This document shows, piece after piece, positions 2,877 to 35,406 of a stretch of DNA of 64,000 nt (positions are counted from its first letter, which is position 1; each line of letters begins with the position of its first letter). The notes beneath the pieces were generated by a model, which saw nothing but the letters and a program-made list of their open reading frames with translations, was not told where the DNA came from and made no database searches. Source of the DNA: a virus. The DNA lies in the IMG/VR virus record IMGVR_UViG_3300021373_003070; one strand, given 5' to 3'. The position numbers and the translations under genes are program-made.

Positions 2877-3067
2877 TGAATGATGGATTGACTAAGGTTG
2901 ATCAAAATACTTATATAAATAATTCAAGTACAGATTATCAAAAATTTAAGCAAGAACGCGAAAAACTAAAACAAGCAAGAGACATGTCGAATAGGATCAC
3001 TCAATTAGAAACACAGGTGACCAAGATTATGACCCTCATAGAAGAACTTAATGCTAGGATCAAATAA
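2876..3067 (+). CDS. Small coiled-coil protein
   Basis: 63 aa with a heptad-like C-terminus; TAATG overlaps on both sides. Confidence 0.7.
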   Translation: MNDGLTKVDQNTYINNSSTDYQKFKQEREKLKQARDMSNRITQLETQVTKIMTLIEELNARIK

Positions 3068-6000
3068 TGGCGCTACTTTCAGGTTTCGATGAATTAAATT
3101 CAGCAAATGCAACATTTAGTGATTGGTTAACAAAAACCAATGAGCTAATCTTGCTTATGCGAGGTGCAAATACAGCGCCAAGTATTACCTCAGTCATGAC
3201 GGCTAACTCGCTTCCCGGCGGTTCAATGACATTTGGAAATGCTACACTATTTGGCCAATTTACTGCTAATACGATGGTCGTATTGAACGATGGTGAAAAT
3301 GATGGATCAGACGATAATGTTTTCGCCAATGGTAACTTTGGTGGATTAAGAGGTGGTGTATGGAATAATGCTTCTAATACAATCACTGCTGATACATTAT
3401 ACATCGTTTCCAATACCACGTACACAGATGAATCAGTTGAGGTCTATGTCGATTCTACTTATGGTCTTATTGTTGAGCAAAATATTGAAGCGCGGCATGA
3501 TGTCTTATTTGTAGGTAACGGTGGTTCTAACACAAATCCAAAGATGCATTGGGAAGATGCAGACAATATTCTTAGTTTCAATAACAACGTAAGAGCTGTC
3601 TTTGGTAAGAACGCAGGCTCAGAAGTTGTAGGCGGTACAGGACAAGCAGAATTCTTATTTGTTGATGCAGATAATCGAATGTATGTCAACACGGAGAATA
3701 TGAACATCCGTGCAAATACTGACGTCAACTTTATCACAGACAACTTTGAGCTGAAGTCAGATATAGGCTCAGAACTTTATATCTCAGCTGACGTTGCAGA
3801 TAACAGCACAGTCAAGCTATACTATGAAGGTAACGAAAGACTCGCCACGAACACACATGGTATTGTAGTCACAGGCGATGCCATTGTACAAGACGATCTT
3901 GTTATGTTTGATGGTGGCCGAATCATGATGGGTAACACATATCCATATGACGGCACACAGGATATTGCATCATATAACTTTCAAATTTATACAGACGGCA
4001 CTGACGGTATTATTGTATCTGGTGACAAAGATCTCAATATCTTTGTTCATGAAGGATTCAATCTTACAAATGAACCCGGCACGATAAACTTCATCACAGC
4101 TAATAACGATGGCTCAAGCGAAGTTGTTCTTTATAATAACGGTACTGCTCGCCTCGAAACAACCGGTGCACAGGCTGGTGAAGTTCCGGGTGTAGAAATC
4201 TTTGGTGAAGCGAATACGACTACATTGCGTGTACGTCAAGATGCAAACTTTGACAACGATACTTTAAACTCGAACAGTGTTCATTGGGATGCAACAAACG
4301 AAGTATGGAATTACCGTGATTCAGTTAAAGCCACATTCGGTGATAGCGATGACTGGGAGATGTTCTATACTGCTGCAGGTCGTGCATACTCTAATACAGA
4401 TAATCAAGATATTCGAGCCAGAACTGATCTAAATGTTATTTCCAACATTGTGGAAATGAAATCAGAGACAGGCGGCGAATTGTATATCTCAGCAGATGTT
4501 GCTGACAATAGCACTGTCAAACTTTACTACGAAGGTAACGTAAGACTATCTACAAATACACATGGTATTGAAGTTGATGGCGATGTTGTAGTAAAAGATA
4601 ATACTGTCATCTTCGACAATAACAAGCTGTTGATGGGTGGCACATATCCATATACCGGCGGCGAAGCAATCGCCGATTATAATTTCCAAATTTACACTGA
4701 CGGAACCGATGGTATTATTGTTTCTGGTGATAAAGATCTAAACATCTTTGTACACGAAGGATTCAATCTTACTAACGAGCCCGGCACTGTTAGCTTTATT
4801 ACTGCTAATAATGACGGATCAAGTGAAGTTGTACTATACAATAATGGTACAGCAAGATTAGAAACGACTGGTTCACAAGTCGGTGAAGTGCCCGGCGTAG
4901 AGATTCATGGTGAAGCCAACACTGATACACTACGTGTTGAAGGCGATGTTCGCTTCGATGGTTCTACAGACGGTATAACAACAACACTCAATGCTAACAA
5001 CATCGAATGGACATCATTGTCAAATACAATGAACTTCGATGATAACACATATCTTGAGTTTGGTACATCTGGCGACTTCAAGATTCACCATGATGGATCT
5101 CACACATATATGCAAGACACTGCCGGCGTCGGTAATGTCTACTTAGATACAAATACCTTCATTGTTAGAAATGCAGCTGGCAACGAAAATCTAATTCGTG
5201 CGATTCAAGATGATGGCGTAACTCTTTACTTTAATAATAGTCAGCGATTAGATACTACAAACCTTGGTGTTGACATTGAAGGCGAAGCAAACACCGATAC
5301 ATTGCGTGTTCAAGCCAACGCAACGTTTGAGTCAGATGCAATTAGTCCAAACGAAGCTGCGTTAGAGTGGAATTCGGCATCGCGAGTACTTGATTGGAAT
5401 GATAATGCTCGAGCAAGATTTGGTAATGGTGTAGATCTACAGATCTGGCATAGTAGCGCAGATAATAGTTCATATATTGCAGAATCTGGTGCTGGTAATC
5501 TGAACATATCAGGTACTAACATCAACATCGAAGCTCAAGACGGTAGCAATTATATTACAGCAGTCGACGATGGTAGCGTTAGTATTTTCTTTGCCGGCGA
5601 CGGCGTCAGCGATAACGGTAATATTGCACGACTGACTACAACAGACATCGGTGTTGATATTGAAGGTGAGGCCAATACTGATACACTTCGAGTACAAGGC
5701 GACGTTGCAATTGAAGATGGTACTGGTACTGTAGAAGTTACATGGGATGCATCCAATAGCAGAATGAATTTTGTGGACGAAGCAAGATTACGTTTTGGTG
5801 ATAGTGCAGACCTACAAATATGGCACAGCGGTACAGCATCATGGATAGCAGATTCAGGAACAGGCAACCTATTCATCGAAGGTACAAACTTAGTACTAAG
5901 AGCTACCGATGATACACGTTATCTTGTAGGTACCGATGGAACTGGCGTAGAAATTTATTCACCTGACGATAGTGTTGCATTAACTGCAAATAACAATCAG

Positions 6001-8955
6001 ATTCACATCACCGATCTCGCTAATACAAATACATTGCGAGTACGTGGTACGTCATTGTTTGAGAATGATATCAGTATCGAAGGTTCTGATAGTAACGAAG
6101 CGCTAGATTGGGATAAGTCAGCGAATACATTAAACTTTAATGATGATAACTATGCTACATTCGGTACAAGTAGCGATCTACAGCTTTATCACGATGGCAC
6201 AAACTCGTTTATCAAAGAACAAGGTACTGGTCAACTAAACATTGATGGTAGTGTTGTAGCGATTCGTGATGTCAGCGATGGTACAACGATTGCCAAATTT
6301 ACCGATGGTGCTGGTGCTGATATTTCTTACAACGGCACAGTACGAATGTCAACAGATGACGGCGGTATTACTGTTACAGGTAATACAGTTGCTGATGGTT
6401 TTGTTGCAGGTGATAATGAGAAGTTACAACTCGGTAATGCTCAAGATTTAGAGCTGTATCATGACGCTTCTGATTCACGAATTGATAATAAAACCGGTAA
6501 TCTTGTAATTAGAAACGCTTCCAATGATGCTGACGTAATTATTCAAACAGATGATGGTTCAGGTTCCCAAGCAGTATATTTCCAAGCAGATGGTAGTACA
6601 GGATCAGTTAAACTTTTCCATTATGGTGCAACGAAATTAACAACAACTAGTATTGGTGTTGATCTTGAAGGCCAAGCAAACACAGATACACTACGAGTGC
6701 AATCTACCTCTGACTTCGAAGGTAGTATTAACATTCAAGGTTCTAATGATACTGATACTCTCACTTGGACCAAGTCATCCAATACTCTTAACTTCGACGA
6801 CAATAACTTTGCTACATTCGGCAATGATTCTGATCTTTCTATCTACCACGATGGAGATCATTCATTCATCTCCGATACCGGTACAGGCGCATTACGAGTA
6901 CTTTCAAACGACATTATCTTTAAAGATTCGGCGAATACTGAAACAATGGCGCGCTTTGTACAAAATGGTGCTGTTACACTCTACTTTGATAATTCACAGA
7001 AATTTATTACTACCAATACAGGTGCTACACTTACTGGCACATTAATTGCCGATGGTGTTACTGTTGGTGACAATGAGATTATTCAACTTGGTACAACCAT
7101 GCAGTTGTACAATGACGGCTCAACATCTTATATTAACGAAACTGGTAGCGGATCATTAACTGTACAAGCAAATAATCTTATTTTAGAAGATACAGGTGGC
7201 GATGATTTCGTTACAGGTGTAGCAGGTGGTACTGTTAGACTCTATTATGCTGGTGCATATAAGTTAGAAACAGATCTCGCAGGTGTAAATGTAAATGGTT
7301 CATTGGATGTATCATCGGCTCTAACAGTTGGTGGTGTTACTAGTCTCGAAAACGATATTGATATTCAAGGTTCTACGGGCGCAGACACTCTTACGTGGGA
7401 TAAGTCAGCCAACACATTAAACTTTGACGATAACAACTTTGCGACATTTGGTACCGGCGCTGACATGTCTTTGTATCACAATGGTACAAATTCATTTATT
7501 GAAAACACTACTGGTGAGTTGTTTGTAAAAGCAGATGGTCTCACATTACGAAGTACAACGAACGAAGATTATCTAACCGCTGATTTAGACGGTGGCGTTA
7601 CACTGTACTTCAATAATTCGGAGAAACTTGCAACCACTAATACAGGCGCAACACTTACAGGTACATTGATTGCCGACGGTGTTACAGTTGGTGATGACGA
7701 AATCATTCAGCTTGGTACAACCATGCAGCTGTACAATGATGGTGCTAACTCATACATTACCGAATCTGGTTCAGGCAATTTTAACTTACAGGCAAACAGT
7801 GTTGCATTAGAAAATACTGATGGTGGTAACTACTTCACCGGTGTAGCCAATGGCGCTGCTATCATGTATCATGCCGGCACAGCGCGTGTATCAACTACAT
7901 CATCTGGTGCAAGTATCACTGGAGCTCTTGGCGTAACGACAAATCTGACAGTAACAGGTTCAACATCACTCAATGGTACAGTCGATCTTGGTAATGCCGC
8001 TAGCGACAATATTGACTTCAATGGTCGCGTAAGAACTAGTATTGTACCAAACGCGAACAATACGCGTGATCTTGGTTCGTCCACCCTCGTATGGAATGAC
8101 ATCTATAGTGGCGGCGCATTTAGTGGAAATAATGGTACATTTACCGGCGACCTTACAGTTTCAGGCAATACGGCAATTACCGGTAACACTTCAGCATCAC
8201 ACTTTATTGGCAACGGTTCACAGCTTACTGATCTAAATGGCACCGCAATTACTACCGGCACTGTTGACGCTGCTAGAATTGATGCTGAGCTTACATCGAA
8301 TACGAGTGGTACAGCTGCTACTGCTACACAGCCGGCTGTTACCGACTCATCCACTGATACTGACTTTAGAGTAACCTTTGCATCTAATACCGGCCAATTC
8401 CGTGATTTGTATGCTGATTCTACATTCTTATATAATCCAGCTGACAATGCATTATATGTCGACAACTTAATTGTCAATACGGAGATTACTCTACCAGATA
8501 ATATTACAGCGCAAACAGTATCCGCTGTAGATTTCAGTGTATCCAATACGGCCACAATATTAAATCTTGAAGTGACCTCGCTTGAAGCGAACGGCGTGGC
8601 ATTTACCGGTACGGGTGGTGATGTTACAACAACAGCATCTACGATGATCGATAGCTTCCCAATTGAACAAACACGTGGATATAAGTATTTTGTACACGGT
8701 GAAGTCACTAACGACGATACAAAAGGATACGCTGTTGAAATCAACGTTATTACTACTGACACTGGCGCCGATACAAAGATTTTCTACACTCGATATGGTG
8801 AAGTTGAAAATGGTATGGGCACGGTAGAAGTTGTTCCAGAGCTAGCAAGTAATAACACGCACATTGATTTGATGGCGACATGTCCTGCAGCTACAGCTTC
8901 TGCAATTCACAGATTTAACGTACTTAAGATAGAAACTAGGGATAATGGTGTATAA
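3067..8955 (+). CDS. Long tail fibre / adhesin with internal repeats
   Basis: 1962 aa, rich in G/T/N/D. N-terminal TFSDWLTKTN anchor motif and many FGxxxDLxIYHDGxxSxI and GxVxLYxNxxxxLxTT repeats typical of marine phage fibres. Confidence 0.8.
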   Translation: MALLSGFDELNSANATFSDWLTKTNELILLMRGANTAPSITSVMTANSLPGGSMTFGNATLFGQFTANTMVVLNDGENDGSDDNVFANGNFGGLRGGVWNNASNTITADTLYIVSNTTYTDESVEVYVDSTYGLIVEQNIEARHDVLFVGNGGSNTNPKMHWEDADNILSFNNNVRAVFGKNAGSEVVGGTGQAEFLFVDADNRMYVNTENMNIRANTDVNFITDNFELKSDIGSELYISADVADNSTVKLYYEGNERLATNTHGIVVTGDAIVQDDLVMFDGGRIMMGNTYPYDGTQDIASYNFQIYTDGTDGIIVSGDKDLNIFVHEGFNLTNEPGTINFITANNDGSSEVVLYNNGTARLETTGAQAGEVPGVEIFGEANTTTLRVRQDANFDNDTLNSNSVHWDATNEVWNYRDSVKATFGDSDDWEMFYTAAGRAYSNTDNQDIRARTDLNVISNIVEMKSETGGELYISADVADNSTVKLYYEGNVRLSTNTHGIEVDGDVVVKDNTVIFDNNKLLMGGTYPYTGGEAIADYNFQIYTDGTDGIIVSGDKDLNIFVHEGFNLTNEPGTVSFITANNDGSSEVVLYNNGTARLETTGSQVGEVPGVEIHGEANTDTLRVEGDVRFDGSTDGITTTLNANNIEWTSLSNTMNFDDNTYLEFGTSGDFKIHHDGSHTYMQDTAGVGNVYLDTNTFIVRNAAGNENLIRAIQDDGVTLYFNNSQRLDTTNLGVDIEGEANTDTLRVQANATFESDAISPNEAALEWNSASRVLDWNDNARARFGNGVDLQIWHSSADNSSYIAESGAGNLNISGTNINIEAQDGSNYITAVDDGSVSIFFAGDGVSDNGNIARLTTTDIGVDIEGEANTDTLRVQGDVAIEDGTGTVEVTWDASNSRMNFVDEARLRFGDSADLQIWHSGTASWIADSGTGNLFIEGTNLVLRATDDTRYLVGTDGTGVEIYSPDDSVALTANNNQIHITDLANTNTLRVRGTSLFENDISIEGSDSNEALDWDKSANTLNFNDDNYATFGTSSDLQLYHDGTNSFIKEQGTGQLNIDGSVVAIRDVSDGTTIAKFTDGAGADISYNGTVRMSTDDGGITVTGNTVADGFVAGDNEKLQLGNAQDLELYHDASDSRIDNKTGNLVIRNASNDADVIIQTDDGSGSQAVYFQADGSTGSVKLFHYGATKLTTTSIGVDLEGQANTDTLRVQSTSDFEGSINIQGSNDTDTLTWTKSSNTLNFDDNNFATFGNDSDLSIYHDGDHSFISDTGTGALRVLSNDIIFKDSANTETMARFVQNGAVTLYFDNSQKFITTNTGATLTGTLIADGVTVGDNEIIQLGTTMQLYNDGSTSYINETGSGSLTVQANNLILEDTGGDDFVTGVAGGTVRLYYAGAYKLETDLAGVNVNGSLDVSSALTVGGVTSLENDIDIQGSTGADTLTWDKSANTLNFDDNNFATFGTGADMSLYHNGTNSFIENTTGELFVKADGLTLRSTTNEDYLTADLDGGVTLYFNNSEKLATTNTGATLTGTLIADGVTVGDDEIIQLGTTMQLYNDGANSYITESGSGNFNLQANSVALENTDGGNYFTGVANGAAIMYHAGTARVSTTSSGASITGALGVTTNLTVTGSTSLNGTVDLGNAASDNIDFNGRVRTSIVPNANNTRDLGSSTLVWNDIYSGGAFSGNNGTFTGDLTVSGNTAITGNTSASHFIGNGSQLTDLNGTAITTGTVDAARIDAELTSNTSGTAATATQPAVTDSSTDTDFRVTFASNTGQFRDLYADSTFLYNPADNALYVDNLIVNTEITLPDNITAQTVSAVDFSVSNTATILNLEVTSLEANGVAFTGTGGDVTTTASTMIDSFPIEQTRGYKYFVHGEVTNDDTKGYAVEINVITTDTGADTKIFYTRYGEVENGMGTVEVVPELASNNTHIDLMATCPAATASAIHRFNVLKIETRDNGV

Positions 8956-9362
8956 TGGCAAACGCAATATACGATAAATACAAAGAAGAAATATTGACGA
9001 CTGCAACAAATACTAACTTGTTGACAGAAACGGTGAAAGTGTCTCTTGTAAATTCAGATATCACATTATTTGATAGTACTGACGAATTCTATAGCGACTT
9101 AAATTCTACTGGTGGTATTCTTTCAACTGTAACTCTTGCGAATAAAACACTCGTAGATGGTGTTTTAAATGCAGACGATCTTGTTTTTTCAAGCGTTACA
9201 GGTGCAGAGTCTGAAGCACTATTGATATGGATAGATACCGGAGTCACAACTACATCGCGGCTGGTTTGTTGGTTAGACACCAATATCACTGGTTTTCCTA
9301 TTACGCCTGACGGTTCTAATATAGATATTACATGGAGCAGTTCAGGTATTTTTAAACTATAA
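8955..9362 (+). CDS. Conserved small virion/tail-associated protein
   Basis: 135 aa, coupled to the fibre gene; ends ITPDGSNIDITWSSSGIFKL. Confidence 0.65.
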   Translation: MANAIYDKYKEEILTTATNTNLLTETVKVSLVNSDITLFDSTDEFYSDLNSTGGILSTVTLANKTLVDGVLNADDLVFSSVTGAESEALLIWIDTGVTTTSRLVCWLDTNITGFPITPDGSNIDITWSSSGIFKL

Positions 9363-9372
9363 GAGAAGATAG

Positions 9373-10527
9373 ATGGCAACTTCACAGAAATTTGATGCGT
9401 TAGATGGATTAGAAGTCACAGGTCAAATGACCGTGGGGGCAAATCTTGCCGTTGATTCAGATACTCTTTTTGTAGATAGTGTCAATGATCGTGTTGGCAT
9501 CAACGATTCAACACCATCATATCCGCTTGATGTAAATGGCAATGCACAAGTTACAGGTGGCATATACGTTGGCACTAATATTACTCACATCGGCGACGCC
9601 GATACCACGATCGGATTTACGACAAATCAAATTGATATTACTGCTGGTAACGTAAATGTTGCTCGAGCCAATACTACTGTGCTATCAATTCAAGCCGGCT
9701 CAGGTATTGCAGTTAGAGATGTAACCGGCGGAGCCGCTGCTTCAGAGTTTCAATCTAATTCTAGTAAACCAAACGGCTCAATTGGGGCTAACTTCGTATA
9801 TACACATGTTGTAGAAGCCGCTGGTGAGAAAGCATCCGGTGGAAGTGCAATCGTATTAGGTCAAATTGACTATACTGGTTCGGGTACTTGGTCAAATACA
9901 AGCTCAGACAATATTAAATTTGTTCTAGGTGGTGCCGATAATTATAATTTTTCGACGACCAACGCCAATTTTTACAACAATAATCTAATCAATGTTACTG
10001 ATATCACTGTAGCAAATAGTATTAGTCATGTCGGCGATAATAATACTTATTTCCAATTTAATTCTAATGATTCGGCCCGTATTGTTACTAACGGATCCCA
10101 GAGATTTGTAGCAAATAATAGTGGTGTATTCGTATCAGGCGCTTTAGATGTATCGACAGATATTACGGCTCGACGGCTTACTGTCGAAGATTATTTTATT
10201 GAAACTACTTCAACCGCTCCGGGCGGTACCGCTGTTACAATTGATTGTAACGTAGGATCAGTTGTTGAATTTACTCCATCAGGAGCATATTCAGTAGACT
10301 TTACCAACTTACCGACAAATGGAACATCAGCATTCACATTGGTTATAAATAATAATGGAACTGCTAGAGAAGCAACATGGCCGGGCTCTGGAGAAGATGA
10401 TGCAATATATTGGGCTGAAAGCGTTGAGCCACCAGCATCAGCAGGTTACGACATATATAATTTTATTGTGATTAATGGCAAAATTTATGGTTCGCTTTCA
10501 ATCCGCAATGCTGGTTGGGCACAATAA
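9373..10527 (+). CDS. Tail fibre / fibre-adaptor protein
   Basis: LFVDSVNDRVGIN..P..LDVNG fibre repeat. The C-terminal WP..WAESVEPP..DIY domain is shared with 22451-23089. Confidence 0.7.
   Translation: MATSQKFDALDGLEVTGQMTVGANLAVDSDTLFVDSVNDRVGINDSTPSYPLDVNGNAQVTGGIYVGTNITHIGDADTTIGFTTNQIDITAGNVNVARANTTVLSIQAGSGIAVRDVTGGAAASEFQSNSSKPNGSIGANFVYTHVVEAAGEKASGGSAIVLGQIDYTGSGTWSNTSSDNIKFVLGGADNYNFSTTNANFYNNNLINVTDITVANSISHVGDNNTYFQFNSNDSARIVTNGSQRFVANNSGVFVSGALDVSTDITARRLTVEDYFIETTSTAPGGTAVTIDCNVGSVVEFTPSGAYSVDFTNLPTNGTSAFTLVINNNGTAREATWPGSGEDDAIYWAESVEPPASAGYDIYNFIVINGKIYGSLSIRNAGWAQ
10344..10351 (+). promoter_or_regulatory. T4-type late promoter (possible, intragenic) upstream of the hairpin fibre gene
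   Basis: TATAAATA ~200 nt before 10545. Confidence 0.45.
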
Positions 10528-10544: not shown

Positions 10545-13466
10545 ATGCCAGTAGGTGGCGGTAAGGGTTTTATTGATAAAACCTGGGCACAAACATTTGA
10601 TGAAACACGATTCAAAGATGCTGCGTCAGGTACAACTGATGCAACTCCTATTTCTGTGCCTTATGGAAAGCAAGTAATTGAAATTACTGCAAGGGGTGGA
10701 GCCGCTAGCGCGCCAATACTAGATCCTGCATATTCAATTACAAAGAACGCTTATACAACGTCAAACATTACTTCGTATCCTTCGCGTACTTTCTTTAAGG
10801 ATGTATATACAACTCAGATCAATACCTCGTATCCAACAAGAACATTCTTTAAAGATTCATATACGTTATCTACAATATATCCAGCTAGGAATACTTTTGA
10901 GAATGCTTATACTACTGTAGCATATACGCAGTATCCATCGCGTGTGCAAAAGAATGCATATAATACTGTACAATTCACTGCATATCCTGCTGACGTTGCG
11001 AAGAATGCCTATACCACTCAGGTAAACACTGCTTATCCTGCTGACGTTCAAAAGAATGCTTATTCTACTGTAGCATATACACAATATCCAACCAGATTTA
11101 ATAAAGCCGCTTATAATACCGTACAGTATACGCAATATCCAATTAGATACGCTAAGTCAGCTTATACTACTGTAGCATATACGCAGTATCCACAGCGAAA
11201 CCAAAAAAATGCTTATACGACTGTAGCATATACGCAGTATCCTGCTCGTACTCAGAAAGCCGCATATAATACACAGGTCAATACGGCTTATGGTGCCGAC
11301 GTTCAAAAGAATGCTTATACGACTGTAGCATACACGCAATATCCTATTCGATATTCTAAGGCCGCATATACTACATCGACCATCACTAACTATCCTGCTC
11401 GTACATCAAAAGCAGCATATTCTACAGTAACTAATACTGCATACGGCGCTGACGTGGAAAAGAATGCATATTCTACGGTAACTAATACTGCATACGGCGC
11501 TGACGTGGAAAAGAATGCATATAATACTGTGCAGTATACACAATATCCAGCTGATGTAGCAAAGAATGCATATAACACCGTAGCATATACACAATATCCT
11601 GCACGATTTACTAAGGCTGCATACAATACATCGTCCACCACTAACTATCCCGCGCGGTTTAACAAGGCTGCATACAATACATCAGTCACCACTAATTATC
11701 CTGCACGGTTTAATAAAGCCGCGTATAACACATCAGCTACCACTAACTATCCTGCACGGTTTAATAAAGCTGCGTATAACACATCAGCCATTACTAACTA
11801 TCCTGCTGATGTTCAAAAGAATGCTTATTCTACTGTAACATATTTGTTCTACAACTCTGAAGTTCAGAAATTTTCATATTCGACATCTGTCGTAACGTCA
11901 TATCCAGCTCGTACTCAAAAAGCTGCTTACTCTTTCCAGCAATATCAACTAAGTTCGAGTAACCAAACTTATGTTCTGACAGGATTTGTTTCAGGACCAA
12001 CGCGTTGGCAAAAATCAGCATATAATGCGACTGTCACCACACAGTATCCAGCAAGATTTAATAAAGGTAGTTATAATTTAGCAGTAAATACAGATTATCC
12101 TGCACGGTTTAATAAGGCTGCATATTCTACAGTAACCAATACCGCATATGGTGCTGATGTAGCAAAGAATGCTTATTCTACAGTAGTCAATACTGCTTAT
12201 CCAGCAGCCGTAGCAAAGAATGCTTATTCTACTGTACAAACAACAGCATATGGTGCTGATGTAGCAAAGAATGCTTATTCTACAGTAGTCAATACCGCAT
12301 ATACTGCCGACCAAGAGAAAGCAGCTTATACTACTCAGGTAAACACTGCTTATCCTGCTCGATTTAATAAAAGTGCGTATACAACTCAGGTTAATACGGC
12401 TTATCCTGCACGGTTTAATAAAGCCGCGTATAACACATCAGCTACCACTAACTATCCTGCACGGTTTAATAAAGCTGCGTATAACACATCACAAACAACT
12501 AACTACCCAGAACGGTTCCAAAAAGCTGCTTATTCTACTGTACAAAATACGCAATATCCAGCTGATGTACAAAAGAATGCTTATACTACTCAGGTTAATA
12601 CTTCATATCCTATTCGATATAGTAAAGCTGCTTATAATACTGTACAATATACACAGTATCCACAGAGATTTGCAAAAGGAGCATACACCACTCAGGTAAA
12701 CACTGCTTATCCGCAGCGATTCCAAAAGTCAGCGTATACAACTCAGGTCAATACTTCATATCCTCAGCGTGTGCAGAAAAATGCATACACAACTCAGGTT
12801 AATACTGCATACGGTGCTGATGTACAAAAGAATGCCTATACTACACAGGTCAATACCTCATACCCAACAAGATTTAATAAAGCTGCTTATTCTACTGTAG
12901 CATACACACAATATCCAACCAGATTTAATAAAGCTGCTTATAATACACAGGTAAATACGGCATTTCCACAGAGATTTAATGCTGCATATACAACTCAGAT
13001 CAATACCTCGTATCCAACAAGATCATTCTTTAAAGATTCATATACATTATCTACGATATATCCTGCAAGAAATACTTTCGAGAATGCATATACAACAGTA
13101 GCATATACACAATATCCATCGCGTACATTCTTTGAGAATGCATATTCTACTATACAATATACACAATATCCATCTCGTATAACTAACTATCCGGATAGAG
13201 TTACAGCTGGTACTGCTGGAACCGATAGTGTTGTTTCATGGGTAACAGCAGACGGTTATTCTGTATCGTTTACTGCTGCCGGTGCACAACCAAATATCAC
13301 AAACTATGTAATTCGCACAGCTCAGACTTCAAACAGAAAGATATTTGATCCAACTAAAGTCGATGGTGTAGATGGAACACAACTTAATGTTTCCGTAGGT
13401 AACTCGCCAGCAGGTAACAATACAGCAGCTAATAGAGGGTTTATAAATATAAAGTACACTGGTTAA
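10545..13466 (+). CDS. Tyr/Thr-rich repeat fibre: predicted giant self-complementary beta-hairpin inserted in a glycine-rich-type domain
   Basis: 973 aa. 47 units of KxAYxTxxxTxYPxxxx lie between the N-half (EITARGGA) and C-half (AGTAGTDS..FTAAG..GFINIKY) of a small globular domain. Confidence 0.85.
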   Translation: MPVGGGKGFIDKTWAQTFDETRFKDAASGTTDATPISVPYGKQVIEITARGGAASAPILDPAYSITKNAYTTSNITSYPSRTFFKDVYTTQINTSYPTRTFFKDSYTLSTIYPARNTFENAYTTVAYTQYPSRVQKNAYNTVQFTAYPADVAKNAYTTQVNTAYPADVQKNAYSTVAYTQYPTRFNKAAYNTVQYTQYPIRYAKSAYTTVAYTQYPQRNQKNAYTTVAYTQYPARTQKAAYNTQVNTAYGADVQKNAYTTVAYTQYPIRYSKAAYTTSTITNYPARTSKAAYSTVTNTAYGADVEKNAYSTVTNTAYGADVEKNAYNTVQYTQYPADVAKNAYNTVAYTQYPARFTKAAYNTSSTTNYPARFNKAAYNTSVTTNYPARFNKAAYNTSATTNYPARFNKAAYNTSAITNYPADVQKNAYSTVTYLFYNSEVQKFSYSTSVVTSYPARTQKAAYSFQQYQLSSSNQTYVLTGFVSGPTRWQKSAYNATVTTQYPARFNKGSYNLAVNTDYPARFNKAAYSTVTNTAYGADVAKNAYSTVVNTAYPAAVAKNAYSTVQTTAYGADVAKNAYSTVVNTAYTADQEKAAYTTQVNTAYPARFNKSAYTTQVNTAYPARFNKAAYNTSATTNYPARFNKAAYNTSQTTNYPERFQKAAYSTVQNTQYPADVQKNAYTTQVNTSYPIRYSKAAYNTVQYTQYPQRFAKGAYTTQVNTAYPQRFQKSAYTTQVNTSYPQRVQKNAYTTQVNTAYGADVQKNAYTTQVNTSYPTRFNKAAYSTVAYTQYPTRFNKAAYNTQVNTAFPQRFNAAYTTQINTSYPTRSFFKDSYTLSTIYPARNTFENAYTTVAYTQYPSRTFFENAYSTIQYTQYPSRITNYPDRVTAGTAGTDSVVSWVTADGYSVSFTAAGAQPNITNYVIRTAQTSNRKIFDPTKVDGVDGTQLNVSVGNSPAGNNTAANRGFINIKYTG
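10743..13184 (+). repeat. 51-bp (17-aa) coding tandem repeat array: 23 units, a 31-aa turn unit and 23 units
   Basis: Parsed by hand from the translation: arm 1 = 10743-11918 (392 aa), turn = 11919-12011, arm 2 = 12012-13184 (391 aa). Confidence 0.95.
13442..13449 (+). promoter_or_regulatory. T4-type late promoter for the oxygenase cassette
   Basis: TATAAATA 40 nt before ATG 13489. Confidence 0.7.
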
Positions 13467-13488: not shown

Positions 13489-14049
13489 ATGTTATTAGCT
13501 CCATCCACGGAACTTTCTCGTTTCGTAATTGTCGATAATCTTGTTGACACCGTAGATAAAATACGATTCTTTGAGAAGATTATCGGTTTTCAACCTAGAG
13601 ATCCAGAAAGCGAATTTGCATGTGATTTAGGATATCTAGAATCAGACATGAATACAAATAAAATTGTGTATGATCCCTTTCATTCTCTTATCTCTACAAT
13701 AAATTATGAAGCTTTTTTGTATGATATAGAATCTCTTGAAAAATTCATGTACGCTCGACTTACTTCAACTGCTCAAGATCATATCAAACCTCATCGTGAA
13801 ATACGATTATCTGGCTATAGAAAACAAGATCGTAAGATTACGATGCTTAGCTGTCTATCAAATAATAACGAATATGAAGGTGGCGAATTAAAAATTGATA
13901 TCGATGGAACTCTGCAACCGCAAATTATAAATTTAAAGGCCGGCCAAACGGTATTCTTTGATTCACATGTTACATGGGGAATAGAACCAGTGACGAGTGG
14001 CGAAGCAAGATTTCTATTGAACAATGCATGGGGTAAATCACAACTATGA
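13489..14049 (+). CDS. 2OG-Fe(II) oxygenase-fold protein (PKHD/P4H-like), degenerate active site
   Basis: RKITM..L..YEGGEL..G..FFDS..EPVTSG pattern. HxE is present, but the distal His position holds Trp. Confidence 0.75.
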   Translation: MLLAPSTELSRFVIVDNLVDTVDKIRFFEKIIGFQPRDPESEFACDLGYLESDMNTNKIVYDPFHSLISTINYEAFLYDIESLEKFMYARLTSTAQDHIKPHREIRLSGYRKQDRKITMLSCLSNNNEYEGGELKIDIDGTLQPQIINLKAGQTVFFDSHVTWGIEPVTSGEARFLLNNAWGKSQL

Positions 14050-14756
14050 TTTTTAATAATGATCCCGGTCTAGAGTTTTATACATCAGAGCATTTATATG
14101 GCGCACTCATTGAACCATCTAGAATGCAAAAGCATGTGCCAGAATGGTTTAAGAAAATACCTGTTACAAAAAATATTCGTGATCAAGGTGGGTTCCCATT
14201 ATTTACGGCTAAAAAATGTTTACCTATGCTAGATGCTATGACTCTTGGTTGGGTGATTCCATTACAAAGTGATGTACATGTAATTACAAATGACGATTGT
14301 TCTATAATTCAGGCTGCAGGAAGAGAAGGCAATCAAATACAAGCCGTACAAGGCCACGCGTGGGATCAAATTGCATCTGAAAAATGGCCGGGCTTTAAAC
14401 AAGATCCGTTGAAGTTTATTAATCATTGGCGAATCAAAACTAAACCCGGCTGGTCATGTTTATTTCAAGCAATGCCAAATTCAGTGCAATCTGATTTTAC
14501 ATGTTTGAGTGGTGTTGTTGATACCGACACATATATGAATACTATTAATTTTCCAGCTGTTTGGAATACGCCAAATGCAGATATAACTTTAAAAGCAGGT
14601 ACGCCATTAGTGCAAGTTATTCCATTCAAAAGAAATAAGATGGATGCTAAAATCAGAACAGCTACAGATCGCGAAGAAAGAAAAAGAGATATACTTGAAA
14701 AGGCGCAAGGAACAAGAACGGGCGTATACACTCAAGAATTAAGAGAAGTTAGATAA
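14046..14756 (+). CDS. DUF6065-like protein
   Basis: PEWFK..KKCLPMLDAMTLGW..WRIKTKPGWS..GVVDTD..NFP..GTPLVQVIPFKR. Confidence 0.65.
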   Translation: MIFNNDPGLEFYTSEHLYGALIEPSRMQKHVPEWFKKIPVTKNIRDQGGFPLFTAKKCLPMLDAMTLGWVIPLQSDVHVITNDDCSIIQAAGREGNQIQAVQGHAWDQIASEKWPGFKQDPLKFINHWRIKTKPGWSCLFQAMPNSVQSDFTCLSGVVDTDTYMNTINFPAVWNTPNADITLKAGTPLVQVIPFKRNKMDAKIRTATDREERKRDILEKAQGTRTGVYTQELREVR

Positions 14757-15535
14757 TGTGGAAAAAGAATCATAATGAAGAGTTCGTCTTTAATGATATG
14801 TGGGGTTCTGTTTGGGGAACATGGCCGATTGTAGCAGCAAATAAATTTAAAGCGCCGTATGAAAGTTTTCAAAGAGAAAAATATGGGCGACCACATCTTG
14901 TAGATTGTCCCGGCATGTACGACTATAAAAATCAAGGCTGGTTAATGCTAGCTTGGTGTGAAATTGAAGTGCATTGTGATGGAAAAAATACCATGATGTA
15001 TTATGGCCATCGAGATAAAGGTGAATGGCCAACCCCTGTTAATCAAGAATGTCCATATAAGCTTGATCACAATAAACACATCGACGAGCAATGGATAAAA
15101 AGTGCATCTGGCATGTCAGAAAAAATAGCCCATGGTATCGCCGAGCATCGAGACAGCAATCCTACACCAATGCATATTAGTACGCCATGGGCAATAATTA
15201 ATAAAGGCTGTTCGCTAATGGTTCAGCCTCCTGTATATCATAGTAATATTTCAGAAGACTTTTATGTATATCCCGGCATAGTTGATTATGAGAATGGATT
15301 TTCTACAATGAATTTTATATTCTCATGTAAAAAAGAAGGTAAGTTTACAATTAAACCGGGTACTCCTATTTTACATATGATACCTATGATTAAAAGAGAT
15401 TGGAAGGCATACTATACACACGATAGTTTAGGTGAAACAAAATTCTATACTGGTGCGCTGTCTAATGCTAAACAATTTTATAGAAAAATGGTACATAGAA
15501 GAAACAGATTTACGATTGATCGGTGGGATAAATGA
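14756..15535 (+). CDS. DUF6065-like protein (paralogue of the preceding gene)
   Basis: CPGMYDY..GW..PW..PGIVD..NF..PGTPILHMIP aligns with the preceding ORF. Confidence 0.6.
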   Translation: MWKKNHNEEFVFNDMWGSVWGTWPIVAANKFKAPYESFQREKYGRPHLVDCPGMYDYKNQGWLMLAWCEIEVHCDGKNTMMYYGHRDKGEWPTPVNQECPYKLDHNKHIDEQWIKSASGMSEKIAHGIAEHRDSNPTPMHISTPWAIINKGCSLMVQPPVYHSNISEDFYVYPGIVDYENGFSTMNFIFSCKKEGKFTIKPGTPILHMIPMIKRDWKAYYTHDSLGETKFYTGALSNAKQFYRKMVHRRNRFTIDRWDK

Positions 15536-16347
15536 TAAACACAGAAGCTCTAGAAGAAATTAAAATTGCTACAAGCTTTAATGATAGACCGTATCTAATT
15601 AAAAACTTTACTTCATTTCCTGACCAATTTTTAAATCATATGTATTTTTATGAATGTTTCGGTGAATGTAATTATTATGATTGTCATGTATTGCCTATTA
15701 TGGAATGGGGTGATACAGCGTCGTCACTAAAGATATCATTTAATGATCTTGCTTATAAAAATAAAAAGAAAGACATAGATGAGAATGGCGTGCAGAATTA
15801 TAAGTCGCGACAAAGAATGGAAGGGATGGGTAGGAAACGTCCATTAGATTATTTAAAAGATAAGAACACGCTTAGAATTTATAATTATGAAAAATATAAT
15901 AATCTATCGCGTGATATGAGTAATGCTTTATTAGACACCTTTACACTCGATGTAGATATCTTTGGGGTGTGGCCGGCGTTTGTAACACCAGAAAAAGGTG
16001 CTGCGCATGCGACTTTCATAAAAGAGAATGAAATATCTGGTCATCCTCGAGGTGAAAATTATAATTCATTTTACTTACAAACAGTAGGCACATCAGAGTT
16101 TGTCATATACAAAAATCGTGTCAGTGGTTTAGTTGATAAGAATCTACCATTTGACTGGACAAAAGAAAAACGAGTAATATTTTTTGATAATCTTGAAGTC
16201 GAAGAAACCATAGAAGTAAACCCAGGCGACTTACTATACATACCTGAAAGAAAAATGTTTTATGAAAAAGGTGTGGAAGAAAGAATGCATATTAATTTTC
16301 CTCTAATATACAAAGGACCTCAGTCGAGTTATAATCCAACATTATGA
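15532..16347 (+). CDS. JmjC/cupin-like protein, degenerate active site
   Basis: NSFYLQTVGTSEF and VNPGDLLYIP are JmjC/cupin-4 motifs. The HxD and distal His positions read RGE and F. Confidence 0.65.
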   Translation: MINTEALEEIKIATSFNDRPYLIKNFTSFPDQFLNHMYFYECFGECNYYDCHVLPIMEWGDTASSLKISFNDLAYKNKKKDIDENGVQNYKSRQRMEGMGRKRPLDYLKDKNTLRIYNYEKYNNLSRDMSNALLDTFTLDVDIFGVWPAFVTPEKGAAHATFIKENEISGHPRGENYNSFYLQTVGTSEFVIYKNRVSGLVDKNLPFDWTKEKRVIFFDNLEVEETIEVNPGDLLYIPERKMFYEKGVEERMHINFPLIYKGPQSSYNPTL

Positions 16348-16964
16348 TAGAAGTAGAAGACATTTTCATTGAAAGTATTTTTAAAGAAGTATATGACGAT
16401 ATAAATCATCAAGAAATACACGACTATATAAACTTTCTTATGAGTAGAGAAGAGAAAGGTGTAGTCATTTCTAATAAAGGTGGGTGGCAATATCATGTTC
16501 AACGCGATGAGTGTGAAGCTATAGATTATTTGAATGATAGACTGCATGCCACGGCCCATCAAATTTTATATGAGTATTATAGCTTTGATATGAAGAATAT
16601 GGTCAGCGCTGGTATATGGATTAATGTAAATAATTCCGGTGATTATAACGTAAATCATAATCACGCCGGCTCCGTGCTATCTAGTTGTTATTATTTACAG
16701 GCGCCTGAACCTTCAGCCCATATTGAATTTGAACCAAATGATCAATTGTCTAGAACAATATTGAGAAACGAACTCGAAAAAGGTGGATCTGAATTTTTAG
16801 GAGATGATAATCCTCGTATTAGAATGGGCGCGGGCAAAGCACCACAAGAACGGGAAGCATACTTTTTTACAGGACATCTGTCACATCGAGTTGATATAAA
16901 TAATTCAGTCGAGCCTAGAATTTCACTCGCGGCTAATTTCTGTTCGAGCGCAGCTCGCTCTTAG
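16344..16964 (+). CDS. Putative 2OG-Fe(II) oxygenase (TIGR02466-like), intact ligands
   Basis: SNKGGWQ..WINVN..DYNVNHNH..LSSCYY..HRV..N..RISLAAN. Confidence 0.8.
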   Translation: MIEVEDIFIESIFKEVYDDINHQEIHDYINFLMSREEKGVVISNKGGWQYHVQRDECEAIDYLNDRLHATAHQILYEYYSFDMKNMVSAGIWINVNNSGDYNVNHNHAGSVLSSCYYLQAPEPSAHIEFEPNDQLSRTILRNELEKGGSEFLGDDNPRIRMGAGKAPQEREAYFFTGHLSHRVDINNSVEPRISLAANFCSSAARS

Positions 16965-32883: not shown

Positions 32884-35406
32884 ATGCCTTTTCAATTAAG
32901 CCCAGGCGTTAATACTACAGAAATCGATTTGACGACTGTAATCCCTGCCGTGGCTACAACTGATGGCGCCATTGCGGGCGTATTTCAGTGGGGTCCGGTA
33001 GATAAGCCCGTACTAGTTACAGGCGAAGACGACATGGTAGCGCAGTTTGGCAAGCCAAATGCTGGTAATTTTGAAACATTCATGACAGCCGCTAGCTTTT
33101 TGTCTTACAGTAACAGCTTGTATATTTCACGAGCTCATCACTCATTCGGTTCTGATATTCGTCTTTCAGTATTTACTGTCGACGGTGCTGACTACTTTGT
33201 AGTTGCAGATAGCGATTCAACAGGTGTTTCGACTGGCGATGTAGTTGCTGCTCGTGGCTCTGACGTTGCTGAAGCTGTTGTCACTGTTGATGCTTCAGAT
33301 CAAGTCGAAGCTATTACTCAAACCAATATCGACACAGTTGGTAATAAGATTGATCAAACTTTGACTGTTCTTCGCGAAGGCGAGAAAGTCACTGCTACAT
33401 CAGATAACGCATTACCTACTGTACTTGGTGGCGGAACTGGCCCATCAGCTGAACTTTACGTCATTAACGTAAACGCTGGTGACTTCCAGTTAACTACTTC
33501 ACAAGGTTCTACAGGTGATATTGTTGTATTCGGTGATACTGGTAGCGGCACAATGACGCTAACACGCTCCGGTTCAACACGAATCACTATGACCGGCGAG
33601 ACTTTCTCCGGTGGAACTGGTTCAACAATTCTCGAATTCCACGATGCCGACTATTCATTCAACGCTGTTGCTAACTCAAGCGTTCGAGCTGCTTCACTTG
33701 CATCTAACATCGTTAAGAACGAAGACACCTACGACGGTGCTCTTGCTTCATTCGATGATAGTGTAGAGTGGATTGCTAAGTATCCCGGTTCTCTTGGAAA
33801 CAGCTTACAGATTTCAGTTTGCGATTCAGCGAATGCTTTCTCATCCACCGTAACTGTCGCTCAAGGTGCTGCAACTGTACTGGCGATTGAAATTGGTGCA
33901 TCAAATGGTACTATTACTACTGACGGCGCTGATTCACTTATCACTGATGTAACTGCTCAATTGGCAGTAGGCGATAAGATTCTGGTTGGTAATACTACAA
34001 TCGGCGAACAGTACCTCGAAATCTCAGGTATCGATACTACTTCAAACACTTCATCAGGTGTACTTACATTTACTACGCCATTGACTACTACTGAAGACGT
34101 TTCAATTGCATCAACTGCAGGTGCAAATGCTACATTCACACGACTATGGCAACATTGGGATCTTGTAGATGGAGCGCCCGGCACTTCAGAGTATGTTGCA
34201 GAGAAAGGCGGAACTGGTAAAGATCAGGTTCACGTAGTTGTTCTCGATGAAGATGGATTGATTTCAGGTGTCCCCGGCACTGTACTTGAAGTATTCAACT
34301 CACTATCTCGTGCAACAGACGCAAAAGACGAGCAAGGTTCATCTCTTTACTATAAAGATGCGATCAACAGCCGATCTCAGTATGTCTGGTGGGCGAATGA
34401 TCGTACTGGCGCAGCTTCTGCTCCTGCGATTAGCGTTGCATCTTCAACCAACAATGATCCTTCAACATTGTCATTCGCTAGTGGCCGAGATAACGGTACT
34501 GAAACTTCAGCTCCTCTCGGTGATATCCTTCGCGCATACGACGTATTTAAGTCAGCCGAAGATGTTGATATCTCACTAGTCATGGCAGGTAAGGCTCGTG
34601 GCGGTGCACACGGTCAAACACTACCCAACTACATTGTAGATAACATTGCTGAATCTCGTAAAGATTGCGTTGTATTCATCTCGCCAGAGCGTGGAGATGT
34701 GGTTGACAACGTTAGCGATATCGCTGCAGACGTAGTTGAATTTAGAAACGCTTGCCGATCAACTTCATACGGTGTTCTAGATGGCGGATACAAGTACATG
34801 TACGACAAGTACAACGACGTATATCGCTGGGTACCATTAAATGGTGACATTGCAGGTCTCGCAGCTTACACAGATGGCGAGCGTGATGCATGGTGGTCAC
34901 CTGCTGGCTTCAACCGCGGACAAATCCGCAATGTTGTACGCCTCGCTTGGAACCCCAAGAAAGCCCAACGTGATCTTCTATACAAGAACGGTGTGAATCC
35001 AGTAGTTAACTTCCCAGGTCAAGGTGTGGTGCTCTTCGGTGACAAGACTATGCTTGCTCGCCCATCAGCATTCGATCGAATCAATGTACGTCGATTGTTC
35101 ATTGTCCTCGAGAAGGCGATTGCGACAGCATCACAATCAACCTTGTTCGAATTTAACGATGAGTTTACAAGAGCGAGCTTTGTAAATCTTGTAACGCCAT
35201 TCCTTCGCAGTGTGCAAGGACGGCGAGGTATTACCGACTTCGTAGTCGTATGTGATGGAACAAACAATACGGGCGACGTAATTGACCGTAACGAGTTTGT
35301 TGGTGACATCTATGTCAAGCCTTCGCGAAGCATCAACTTCATTCAGTTGAATTTTGTTGCGGTTAGAAGCGGCGTAGAATTCTCCGAAGTTATTGGAAAC
35401 GCATAA
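32884..35406 (+). CDS. gp18: Tail sheath protein (with inserted domain)
   Basis: SPGV..EIDLT..FQWGP..WWSPAGFNRG..FDRINVRRLF..FEFND; 840 aa. Confidence 0.97.
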   Translation: MPFQLSPGVNTTEIDLTTVIPAVATTDGAIAGVFQWGPVDKPVLVTGEDDMVAQFGKPNAGNFETFMTAASFLSYSNSLYISRAHHSFGSDIRLSVFTVDGADYFVVADSDSTGVSTGDVVAARGSDVAEAVVTVDASDQVEAITQTNIDTVGNKIDQTLTVLREGEKVTATSDNALPTVLGGGTGPSAELYVINVNAGDFQLTTSQGSTGDIVVFGDTGSGTMTLTRSGSTRITMTGETFSGGTGSTILEFHDADYSFNAVANSSVRAASLASNIVKNEDTYDGALASFDDSVEWIAKYPGSLGNSLQISVCDSANAFSSTVTVAQGAATVLAIEIGASNGTITTDGADSLITDVTAQLAVGDKILVGNTTIGEQYLEISGIDTTSNTSSGVLTFTTPLTTTEDVSIASTAGANATFTRLWQHWDLVDGAPGTSEYVAEKGGTGKDQVHVVVLDEDGLISGVPGTVLEVFNSLSRATDAKDEQGSSLYYKDAINSRSQYVWWANDRTGAASAPAISVASSTNNDPSTLSFASGRDNGTETSAPLGDILRAYDVFKSAEDVDISLVMAGKARGGAHGQTLPNYIVDNIAESRKDCVVFISPERGDVVDNVSDIAADVVEFRNACRSTSYGVLDGGYKYMYDKYNDVYRWVPLNGDIAGLAAYTDGERDAWWSPAGFNRGQIRNVVRLAWNPKKAQRDLLYKNGVNPVVNFPGQGVVLFGDKTMLARPSAFDRINVRRLFIVLEKAIATASQSTLFEFNDEFTRASFVNLVTPFLRSVQGRRGITDFVVVCDGTNNTGDVIDRNEFVGDIYVKPSRSINFIQLNFVAVRSGVEFSEVIGNA

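Follow-up and report, generated by a model that had tools for sequence, protein, structure and literature searches.

A repeat-built fibre protein of a T4-like marine phage with mirror-matched arms that probably folds out and back on itself

A 64,000-nucleotide (nt) stretch of viral DNA (IMG/VR virus record IMGVR_UViG_3300021373_003070; here called the window) carries a confirmed open reading frame (ORF) at 10545-13466 on the + strand that encodes a 973-amino-acid (aa) protein built for the most part of short tandem repeats. We find that these repeats form two arms of 23 units each, placed on either side of a unique 31-aa centre. The covariation between their units shows, as far as sequence comparison reaches, that selection keeps the two arms matched at the exact mirror register. 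In our judgement the protein is probably a fibre that runs out and back, with a split base, 23 units out, a turn, and 23 units back. As part of this best explanation, we propose that it is a virion fibre protein, expressed late, of an uncultured marine myovirus of the T4-like type. An antiparallel out-and-back chain had been put forward in an initial annotation of the window, and it is supported here by equal arms, compensatory insertions and deletions (indels), a swapped pair of partner units, and a pairing code at the mirror register. We put it at somewhat better than even that the protein represents a new class of fibrous fold, a protein "stem-loop" in which two tandem beta-rich arms zip together antiparallel through a code that can be read from sequence, and which evolves as an RNA stem does, by compensatory indels and partner swaps.

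Two arms of 23 units flank a unique centre

A tandem period of 51 nt spans the ORF (Tandem Repeats Finder). Parsing the array on the unit start reproduces exactly the arrangement given in the initial annotation, namely 23 units, a unique 31-aa centre, and 23 further units (Table 1). By unit starts, the return arm covers aa 491-881 (391 aa). The centre unit carries a 14-aa insert with Gly and Pro and is the least self-similar segment of the array, at 0.502 of its length. The annotation had also described units 3 and 45 as the only short-strand ones. These two units, at aa 104 and aa 831, are identical and 16 aa long. Unit 43, which the annotation had passed over, also has 16 aa. The length of unit 43 is compensated by unit 44, which has 18 aa, as do units 1, 2, and 46. 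The composition of the array is dominated by Thr (17%), Ala (15%), Tyr (14%), and Asn (10%), and the whole protein contains neither His nor Cys.

At the DNA level, units within the window array are 60-86% identical to one another, with the exception of a single 150-nt direct repeat. No inverted DNA repeats occur within the gene, and the mirror symmetry is thus confined to the protein level.

Table 1. Features of the fibre gene and its flanks (window coordinates)
Feature	Position	Strand	Remark
T4-type late-promoter-like motif TATAAATA	10344..10351	+	~200 nt upstream of the 973-aa gene; putative function
N piece, aa 1-60	10545..10724	+	Best conserved part of the family; would give the first strands of a split beta-sandwich base
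Lone first-half unit, aa 61-67 (7 aa), N-side base	10725..10745	+	Proposed to pair with the lone second-half unit (13179..13199)
Outward arm, 23 units, aa 68-459 (392 aa)	10746..11921	+	Units mostly 17 aa; parsed on unit start
150-nt block, units 2-4	10794..10943	+	Direct repeat of 12975-13124 (90% identity); class order self-complementary under mirror pairing
Unique 31-aa centre unit, aa 460-490	11922..12014	+	Proposed turn and distal tip; most variable part among relatives
Return arm, 23 units, aa 491-878	12015..13178	+	Unit parse; last unit counted to its YPxR end
150-nt block, second copy, units 44-46	12975..13124	+	90% identity to 10794-10943
Lone second-half unit, aa 879-885, C-side base	13179..13199	+	Unit parse
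C piece, aa 886-973 (88 aa)	13200..13463	+	Would complete the beta-sandwich base
2OG-Fe(II) oxygenase-like gene	13489..14049	+	Pfam PF13640, E 1.1e-7

A family of homologues with shared ends and diverse arrays

We found the family by an exhaustive HMMER search of 1.84 billion representatives, and added full-length members and loci by profile searches with the N piece in metagenomes and IMG/VR contigs. Word-indexed homologue searches with the whole protein or with the family member P0001 were swamped by repeat words. About 18 distinct homologues were recovered, all of them from metagenomes or uncultured viral contigs, and further profile scans of viral contigs, made with the C piece and the N piece, added one new locus only, L028. 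No family in Pfam, PHROG, or NCBIfam scored above threshold for the 973-aa protein, no family matching it was found in the PDB, and tblastn searches of 50,697 phage records, made with the complete protein and with each of its N and C pieces, gave no match. Among the cultured phages of that collection, none has a member of the family.

Every family member has both the N piece and the C piece, which enclose arrays of 312-827 aa made up of units of 11, 14, 15, 16, or 17 aa. The centre is divergent among homologues and takes the form of an irregular 60-100-aa stretch in groups G4 and G5. Two metagenomic proteins of 267-268 aa (P0011 and P0025) make up a divergent branch in which the same N and C pieces enclose 11-aa units of another type; by eye, an irregular centre of ~70 aa is flanked by three units to either side. 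The base domain would therefore be able to host more than one kind of paired array. The short members P0022/L017 (179 aa) and P0001 (352 aa), found on contigs of 1.1 kb and 2.0 kb, are without a centre and fuse a unit of the outward arm straight to a near-identical unit of the return arm, which suggests either assembly collapse or recombinational deletion between the arms.

Arm lengths change together

Whether homologues keep equal arms had been proposed beforehand as a check on the fold-back idea, and the family passes it by arm lengths, by unit counts, and by motif distances, with the exception of one protein, L005, that is taken up below. In the window protein as well as in L001, L014, L004, L007, L011, L019, L012, L010, P0006, and P0004, the 12-residue stretch of lowest self-similarity falls at 0.49-0.51 of the array. 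When centres were transferred by alignment within each homologue group, the N arm and the C arm differed by at most 6 aa in 12 of 18 proteins, over arms of 154-415 aa (correlation coefficient r = 0.967). Counted in units, the N and C arms have 23/23 in the window protein, 20/20 in L001, 13/13 in L007, and 12/12 in both L004 and L011. The outward arm of L001 consists of 15-aa units and its return arm of 14-aa units, and the counts are still equal. A further test dispensed with manual parsing and compared the distances of unit starts from the N base with those of YPxR ends from the C base, scanning offsets of +-70 aa; the best offset was -1 to -3 aa in 16 of the 18 proteins. This match includes irregular arrays, in which neighbouring periods score lower.

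Changes in one arm recur at the mirrored place in the other. A 32-aa insert in the outward arm sets L014 apart from four close relatives, as does another of 32 aa at the mirrored place of the return arm, and the independent assembly L028 reproduces both. L006/P0021 bears a 9-aa Pro-rich insert in each arm, again at mirrored places. An extra first-half unit near the N base is accompanied by an extra second-half unit near the C base in groups G1, G3, G4, and G5. In G1, to which the window protein belongs, the first and last full units known from the other groups are both missing. L011 and L012 each have two distinctive units, unlike one another, at the sixth place counted from the N base and from the C base; in L019, these two units are exchanged between the arms.

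A pairing code at the mirror register

In the window protein, the units fall into four core classes, and class A pairs with B and class C with D in 19 of the 23 mirror pairs. The same rule is obeyed by at most 10 pairs at any shifted mirror register and by at most 7 at any parallel register, and none of 200,000 shuffles reached 19 (maximum 16). An unsupervised, class-free check, performed on this protein, summed mutual information over all core column pairs. It gave 21.5 at the exact mirror register, compared with 9-15 at shifted and parallel registers, and a shuffled mean of 11.3 (standard deviation 1.14, maximum 16.5; 0 of 5000 shuffles reached 21.5).

L001 follows a different code, in which Gln-Asn-Gln cores stand opposite Ser-Val-Ile/Val cores. 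This code is obeyed in 17 of 20 mirror pairs and in at most 11 elsewhere, and no shuffle in 200,000 did as well. A same-class test of L007 scored 13/13 at the mirror register, but also 9/9 at one parallel shift; because the pattern of this protein is periodic, we give the test little weight. In both copies of the 150-nt block of the window protein (units 2-4 and units 44-46), the class order is B, odd, A. This order is its own complement under mirroring, and so a direct copy of the block can sit in both arms. Covariation is thus found at the mirror register and not between neighbouring units or at the parallel register, a distribution that would not fit contacts of the triple beta-spiral type.

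A predicted model of a short form brings the two ends of the chain together

The initial annotation had reasoned that the two ends of the array must meet in space, because the array splits a small domain. Support for this comes from an AlphaFold model of the 179-aa short form (P0022/L017), in which two and a half units separate the N piece from the C piece and which is probably a collapsed form of L014. The model was built from a 30-row alignment in which the N and C columns are cleanly aligned, and it reached a predicted local distance difference test score (pLDDT) of 79.2 and a predicted template modelling score (pTM) of 0.64. N-piece strands are predicted at residues 17-22 and 37-44. Single-domain jelly rolls, including BAFF, TNF, RANKL, C1q, PRD1 P5, Bdellovibrio fibre heads, Ena pilins, and phage baseplate parts, align 90-118 residues over model residues 9-179, with Z scores of 5-6.7. 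Because that number of aligned residues exceeds the C piece alone, the N and C pieces would share one sandwich. The model thus supports a jelly-roll-like beta sandwich to which both pieces contribute.

We claim the type of fold and not a family, since the Z scores lie in a range that is common among proteins of this arrangement: BAFF, APRIL, TNF, C1q, and PRD1 P5 gave Z 5.0-5.8 with root-mean-square deviations (rmsd) of 3.4-4.0 Å over 97-118 aligned residues. The best structural row was the CUB domain of complement C3 (8cem_B; Z 7.5, rmsd 4.5 Å, 96 aligned residues). Foldseek searches of the PDB and BFVD and shape and feature searches of the ESM Atlas returned weak rows only. Among these, TNF/C1q-like jelly rolls had E > 0.03 in Foldseek, and two BFVD rows named glycine-rich domain protein had template modelling (TM) scores of 0.24-0.38 and E > 0.02. 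The glycine-rich-domain models of Pfam and NCBIfam did not match, even when the 179-aa short form with its adjacent halves was searched, and the "glycine-rich-type" label that the annotation had given to the split domain is therefore unverified. A three-copy complex prediction of the short form scored 0.01, which is neither for nor against a trimer.

Proposed architecture of the fibre

A fold-back topology would produce arms that are equal and co-vary, with a unique apex midway between them and both chain ends in one domain. The family shows this combination, the shared domain being predicted, with L005 as the exception. In the architecture that we propose, the first ~60 and last ~88 residues would fold jointly into a jelly-roll-like sandwich that forms a conserved base, and the 825 residues between the two halves of this base would form an out-and-back shaft. 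Twenty-three short beta-rich units would leave the base, the unique 31-residue unit would turn the chain, and another 23 would return, such that unit i packs against unit 48-i. Contact would be set by complementary core side chains, with aromatic cores against Gln-Val/Ile-Asn and Thr-Ser cores against Thr-Val.

We infer that the arms pair within one chain, which folds back on itself. The conserved base is the part that would join the virion, and the unique, variable centre would be the distal tip that faces the host. We assign the base to the virion side because relatives in group G3 have nearly identical N and C pieces while their centres vary. By analogy with other phage fibres, the protein is probably trimeric. 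The shaft could measure from ~30 nm, if the rise is spiral-like, to 130 nm if fully extended, the latter being an upper bound only. We favour arms that advance monotonically, because the return arm of L001 has two linker residues per 14-aa unit and such a unit has no room for a return strand. If the stem-loop notion is correct, the length of the shaft would be set by adding matched unit pairs, and its register by the code.

Points of doubt and alternative explanations

Several observations weigh against this architecture or narrow the grounds for it. The homologues all come from related phages, and independent events are fewer than sequences. The unit classes of the window protein and of L001 were drawn after looking at the data; the class-free mutual information was calculated for this reason, and it removes the objection for the window protein only. 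The arms of L005 are unequal, with 9 units in the N arm and 12 in the C arm. Compared with L011, this protein has a 49-aa deletion in one arm without a partner deletion; the ends of the deletion fall within repeated sequence, and the C-arm partner of a missing N-arm unit is retained. L005 could be an assembly collapse, a defective variant, or a true exception. Its fibre gene, at 4992-6662 of IMGVR_UViG_3300033182_001015, is the only full-length homologue with clearly unequal arms. In the G4 members L016, L018, and L021, the N arm is 11-19 aa longer than the C arm. Structural prediction also gives grounds for caution. A full-length AlphaFold2 model from the single sequence had a pLDDT of 27 and is uninformative for the arms. 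The model of the short form, whose 1.1-kb contig may itself be a collapsed assembly, shows short strands of 5-7 residues that are broken at Pro turns and parted by two-residue turns, and these could form a meander instead of a straight ribbon.

The same equal arms, compensatory indels, partner swap, and pairing code would be expected of an antiparallel swapped oligomer, in which extended chains lie head to tail, unit i pairs with unit 48-i of the other chain, and each C piece is completed by the N piece of another chain, to leave a knob at both ends. We nevertheless regard this arrangement as unlikely, because the centre, with its Gly/Pro insert or its irregular stretch in G4 and G5, is not a regular self-pairing unit, and because a rod with two identical ends would have no polarity from virion to host. 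The short-form model, moreover, places the N and C pieces of one chain together, which also bears on a more familiar design: a one-way trimeric shaft, for example one resembling a triple beta-spiral, with an N-terminal attachment domain and a C-terminal knob at opposite ends. Short repeats with Pro/Gly turns and a jelly-roll-like end do recall the fibres of adenovirus and reovirus, and TNF-like and PRD1 P5 rows are among the structural matches. In such a shaft, the mirror pattern would be meaningless. Tandem duplication yields local similarity and not complementarity between mirror positions, so the signal at the exact register, the mirrored compensatory indels, and the swap would be left unexplained, as would a model that unites both pieces in one domain. 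We hold this design to be very improbable.

The least likely of the alternatives, in our view, is that the array or its symmetry arose from mis-assembly of short reads over repeats. The window array is known from assembled sequence alone, the short members P0022 and P0001 on their contigs of 1-2 kb resemble collapsed arrays, and L005 may be another such case. Yet the window units, apart from the one 150-nt repeat, are diverged enough to assemble, and array forms recur: the 782-aa form is present in three contigs (L001-L003), and the 636-aa form in two independent assemblies (L014, and L028 with five substitutions). Mis-assembly, furthermore, would not be expected to produce complementarity.

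Relation to known fold-back and fibre proteins

In the receptor-binding tip of T4 gp37, called the needle, each chain reportedly runs to the tip and returns, and the structure is said to be held by iron at His-x-His sites. The 973-aa protein would resemble it as an out-and-back chain in a phage fibre whose distal end is coded in the middle of the sequence. The needle measures about 150 by 25 Å (PMC3004832). The gp37 needle, ~15 nm long, has no tandem units, whereas here there are 23 + 23 units with a pairing code; the His-x-His iron sites have no counterpart in a protein without His or Cys; and in the 973-aa protein both termini are predicted to form a single domain. No sequence relation of the gp37/gp12 type was found in Pfam, PHROG, or NCBIfam or by tblastn of the 50,697 phage records.

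Outside phages, SMC and Rad50 proteins have an ABC ATPase head split between their N- and C-terminal parts, an antiparallel arm of alpha-helical coiled coil, and a distinct apex. The split head, the long intramolecular antiparallel arm, and the apex at the point of fold-back are what the proposed fibre would have in common with them; it differs in its short beta-rich repeats, its small beta-sandwich head, and its setting in a phage virion. Streptococcal antigen I/II is said to have a stalk in which the A region, an alpha helix, pairs with the P region, a polyproline II helix. There, too, one chain folds back, repeat arrays of equal number pair, and an apex domain sits on a long stalk, but the protein is bacterial, has 3-4 long repeats, and draws its arms from different repeat families. 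Adenovirus fibre, reovirus sigma1, and PRD1 P5 have triple beta-spiral shafts with a TNF-like knob. These share with the 973-aa protein repeats of ~15 aa, a conserved Pro/Gly turn, and a terminal jelly-roll domain (PRD1 P5 and the TNF/C1q family gave Z 5.2-5.8 against the short-form model). They run one way, however, carry the knob at the C terminus only, and have neither mirror arms nor a split knob. The CUB domain of complement C3 and alpha-2-macroglobulin is similar in that the halves of a beta sandwich are parted by a large inserted module; its insert is a globular thioester domain, the Z score is of a size common for unrelated sandwiches, and we claim no relationship.

Fold-back topology is thus known from SMC/Rad50, antigen I/II, and the gp37 needle, and the 973-aa protein belongs to none of those families: it lacks helices of their type as well as His-x-His sites, and no sequence relation to them was found. 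Literature searches turned up no description of a fold-back repeat fibre such as this, which does not prove that there is none. A structure, once solved, would stand a fair chance of revealing a fibrous fold that is new. If the proposed topology is true, the protein would be a rare case in which long-range contacts can be read from one sequence and checked by compensatory change, as is routinely done for RNA helices, and the short list of fold-back fibres (SMC arms, antigen I/II stalks, and the gp37 needle) would gain a beta-type member. The host-facing tip of this fibre would be encoded mid-gene, a point of importance when receptor-binding regions are annotated in the genomes of marine phages. 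Matched unit pairs could also serve as a natural template for designing rods of set length. The same topology would raise the question of how a tandem array grows when each change needs a partner change hundreds of residues away.

Genomic setting and the downstream cassette

The window is one long + strand series of structural genes of the T4-like myovirus type. Its tail sheath gene (32884-35406) is 50-60% identical to the sheaths of T4-like phages, namely Stenotrophomonas phage DLP_6, Pelagibacter phage HTVC008M, the Methylophilales Melnitz phages, and Sinorhizobium phiM12. Several neighbours of the fibre gene match PHROG tail-fibre and sheath families. The 15 loci examined agree in their gene order (large fibre protein, 137-aa protein, 340-410-aa protein, fibre gene, 2OG-oxygenase-like gene), except that the upstream gene differs in L009 and three loci stop at the fibre gene. 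Taken together, the neighbours, the sheath identity, and the order of genes in the 15 loci place the gene in a tail-fibre module. The late-promoter-like motif TATAAATA occurs 14 times in the window where 6.1 copies are expected, always on the + strand. Besides the copy at 10344, these include one at 13442, which lies inside the fibre gene at its 3' end and shortly before the oxygenase-like gene.

Two genes that precede the fibre gene deserve brief mention. A 1962-aa fibre protein with multiple repeated stretches (3067-8955) matches several PHROG tail-fibre and virion-protein families, and its homologues in related loci have only 900-1150 aa. Next to it, a 135-aa protein (8955-9362) shares ~40% identity with proteins, annotated as "minor tail subunit" or hypothetical, from hundreds of mycobacteriophages and from Pseudomonas, Shewanella, and Pseudanabaena phages, a spread that is unusually wide for a small protein of a fibre module.

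A cassette of small genes (13489-16964) begins 22 nt past the fibre stop codon and includes, among others, the oxygenase-like gene and a DUF6065 gene. A homologue of the 2OG-Fe(II) oxygenase-like gene follows the fibre gene in each homologous locus long enough to reach it. Its product might modify the Pro/Asn/Lys/Tyr-rich repeats of the fibre, although shared ancestry of the phages explains this synteny equally well. Homologues of the oxygenase-like protein keep an H-x-D...H triad. The copy in the window has H-x-E and a Trp at the position of the distal His, and with these replacements it may be inactive or use another ligand.

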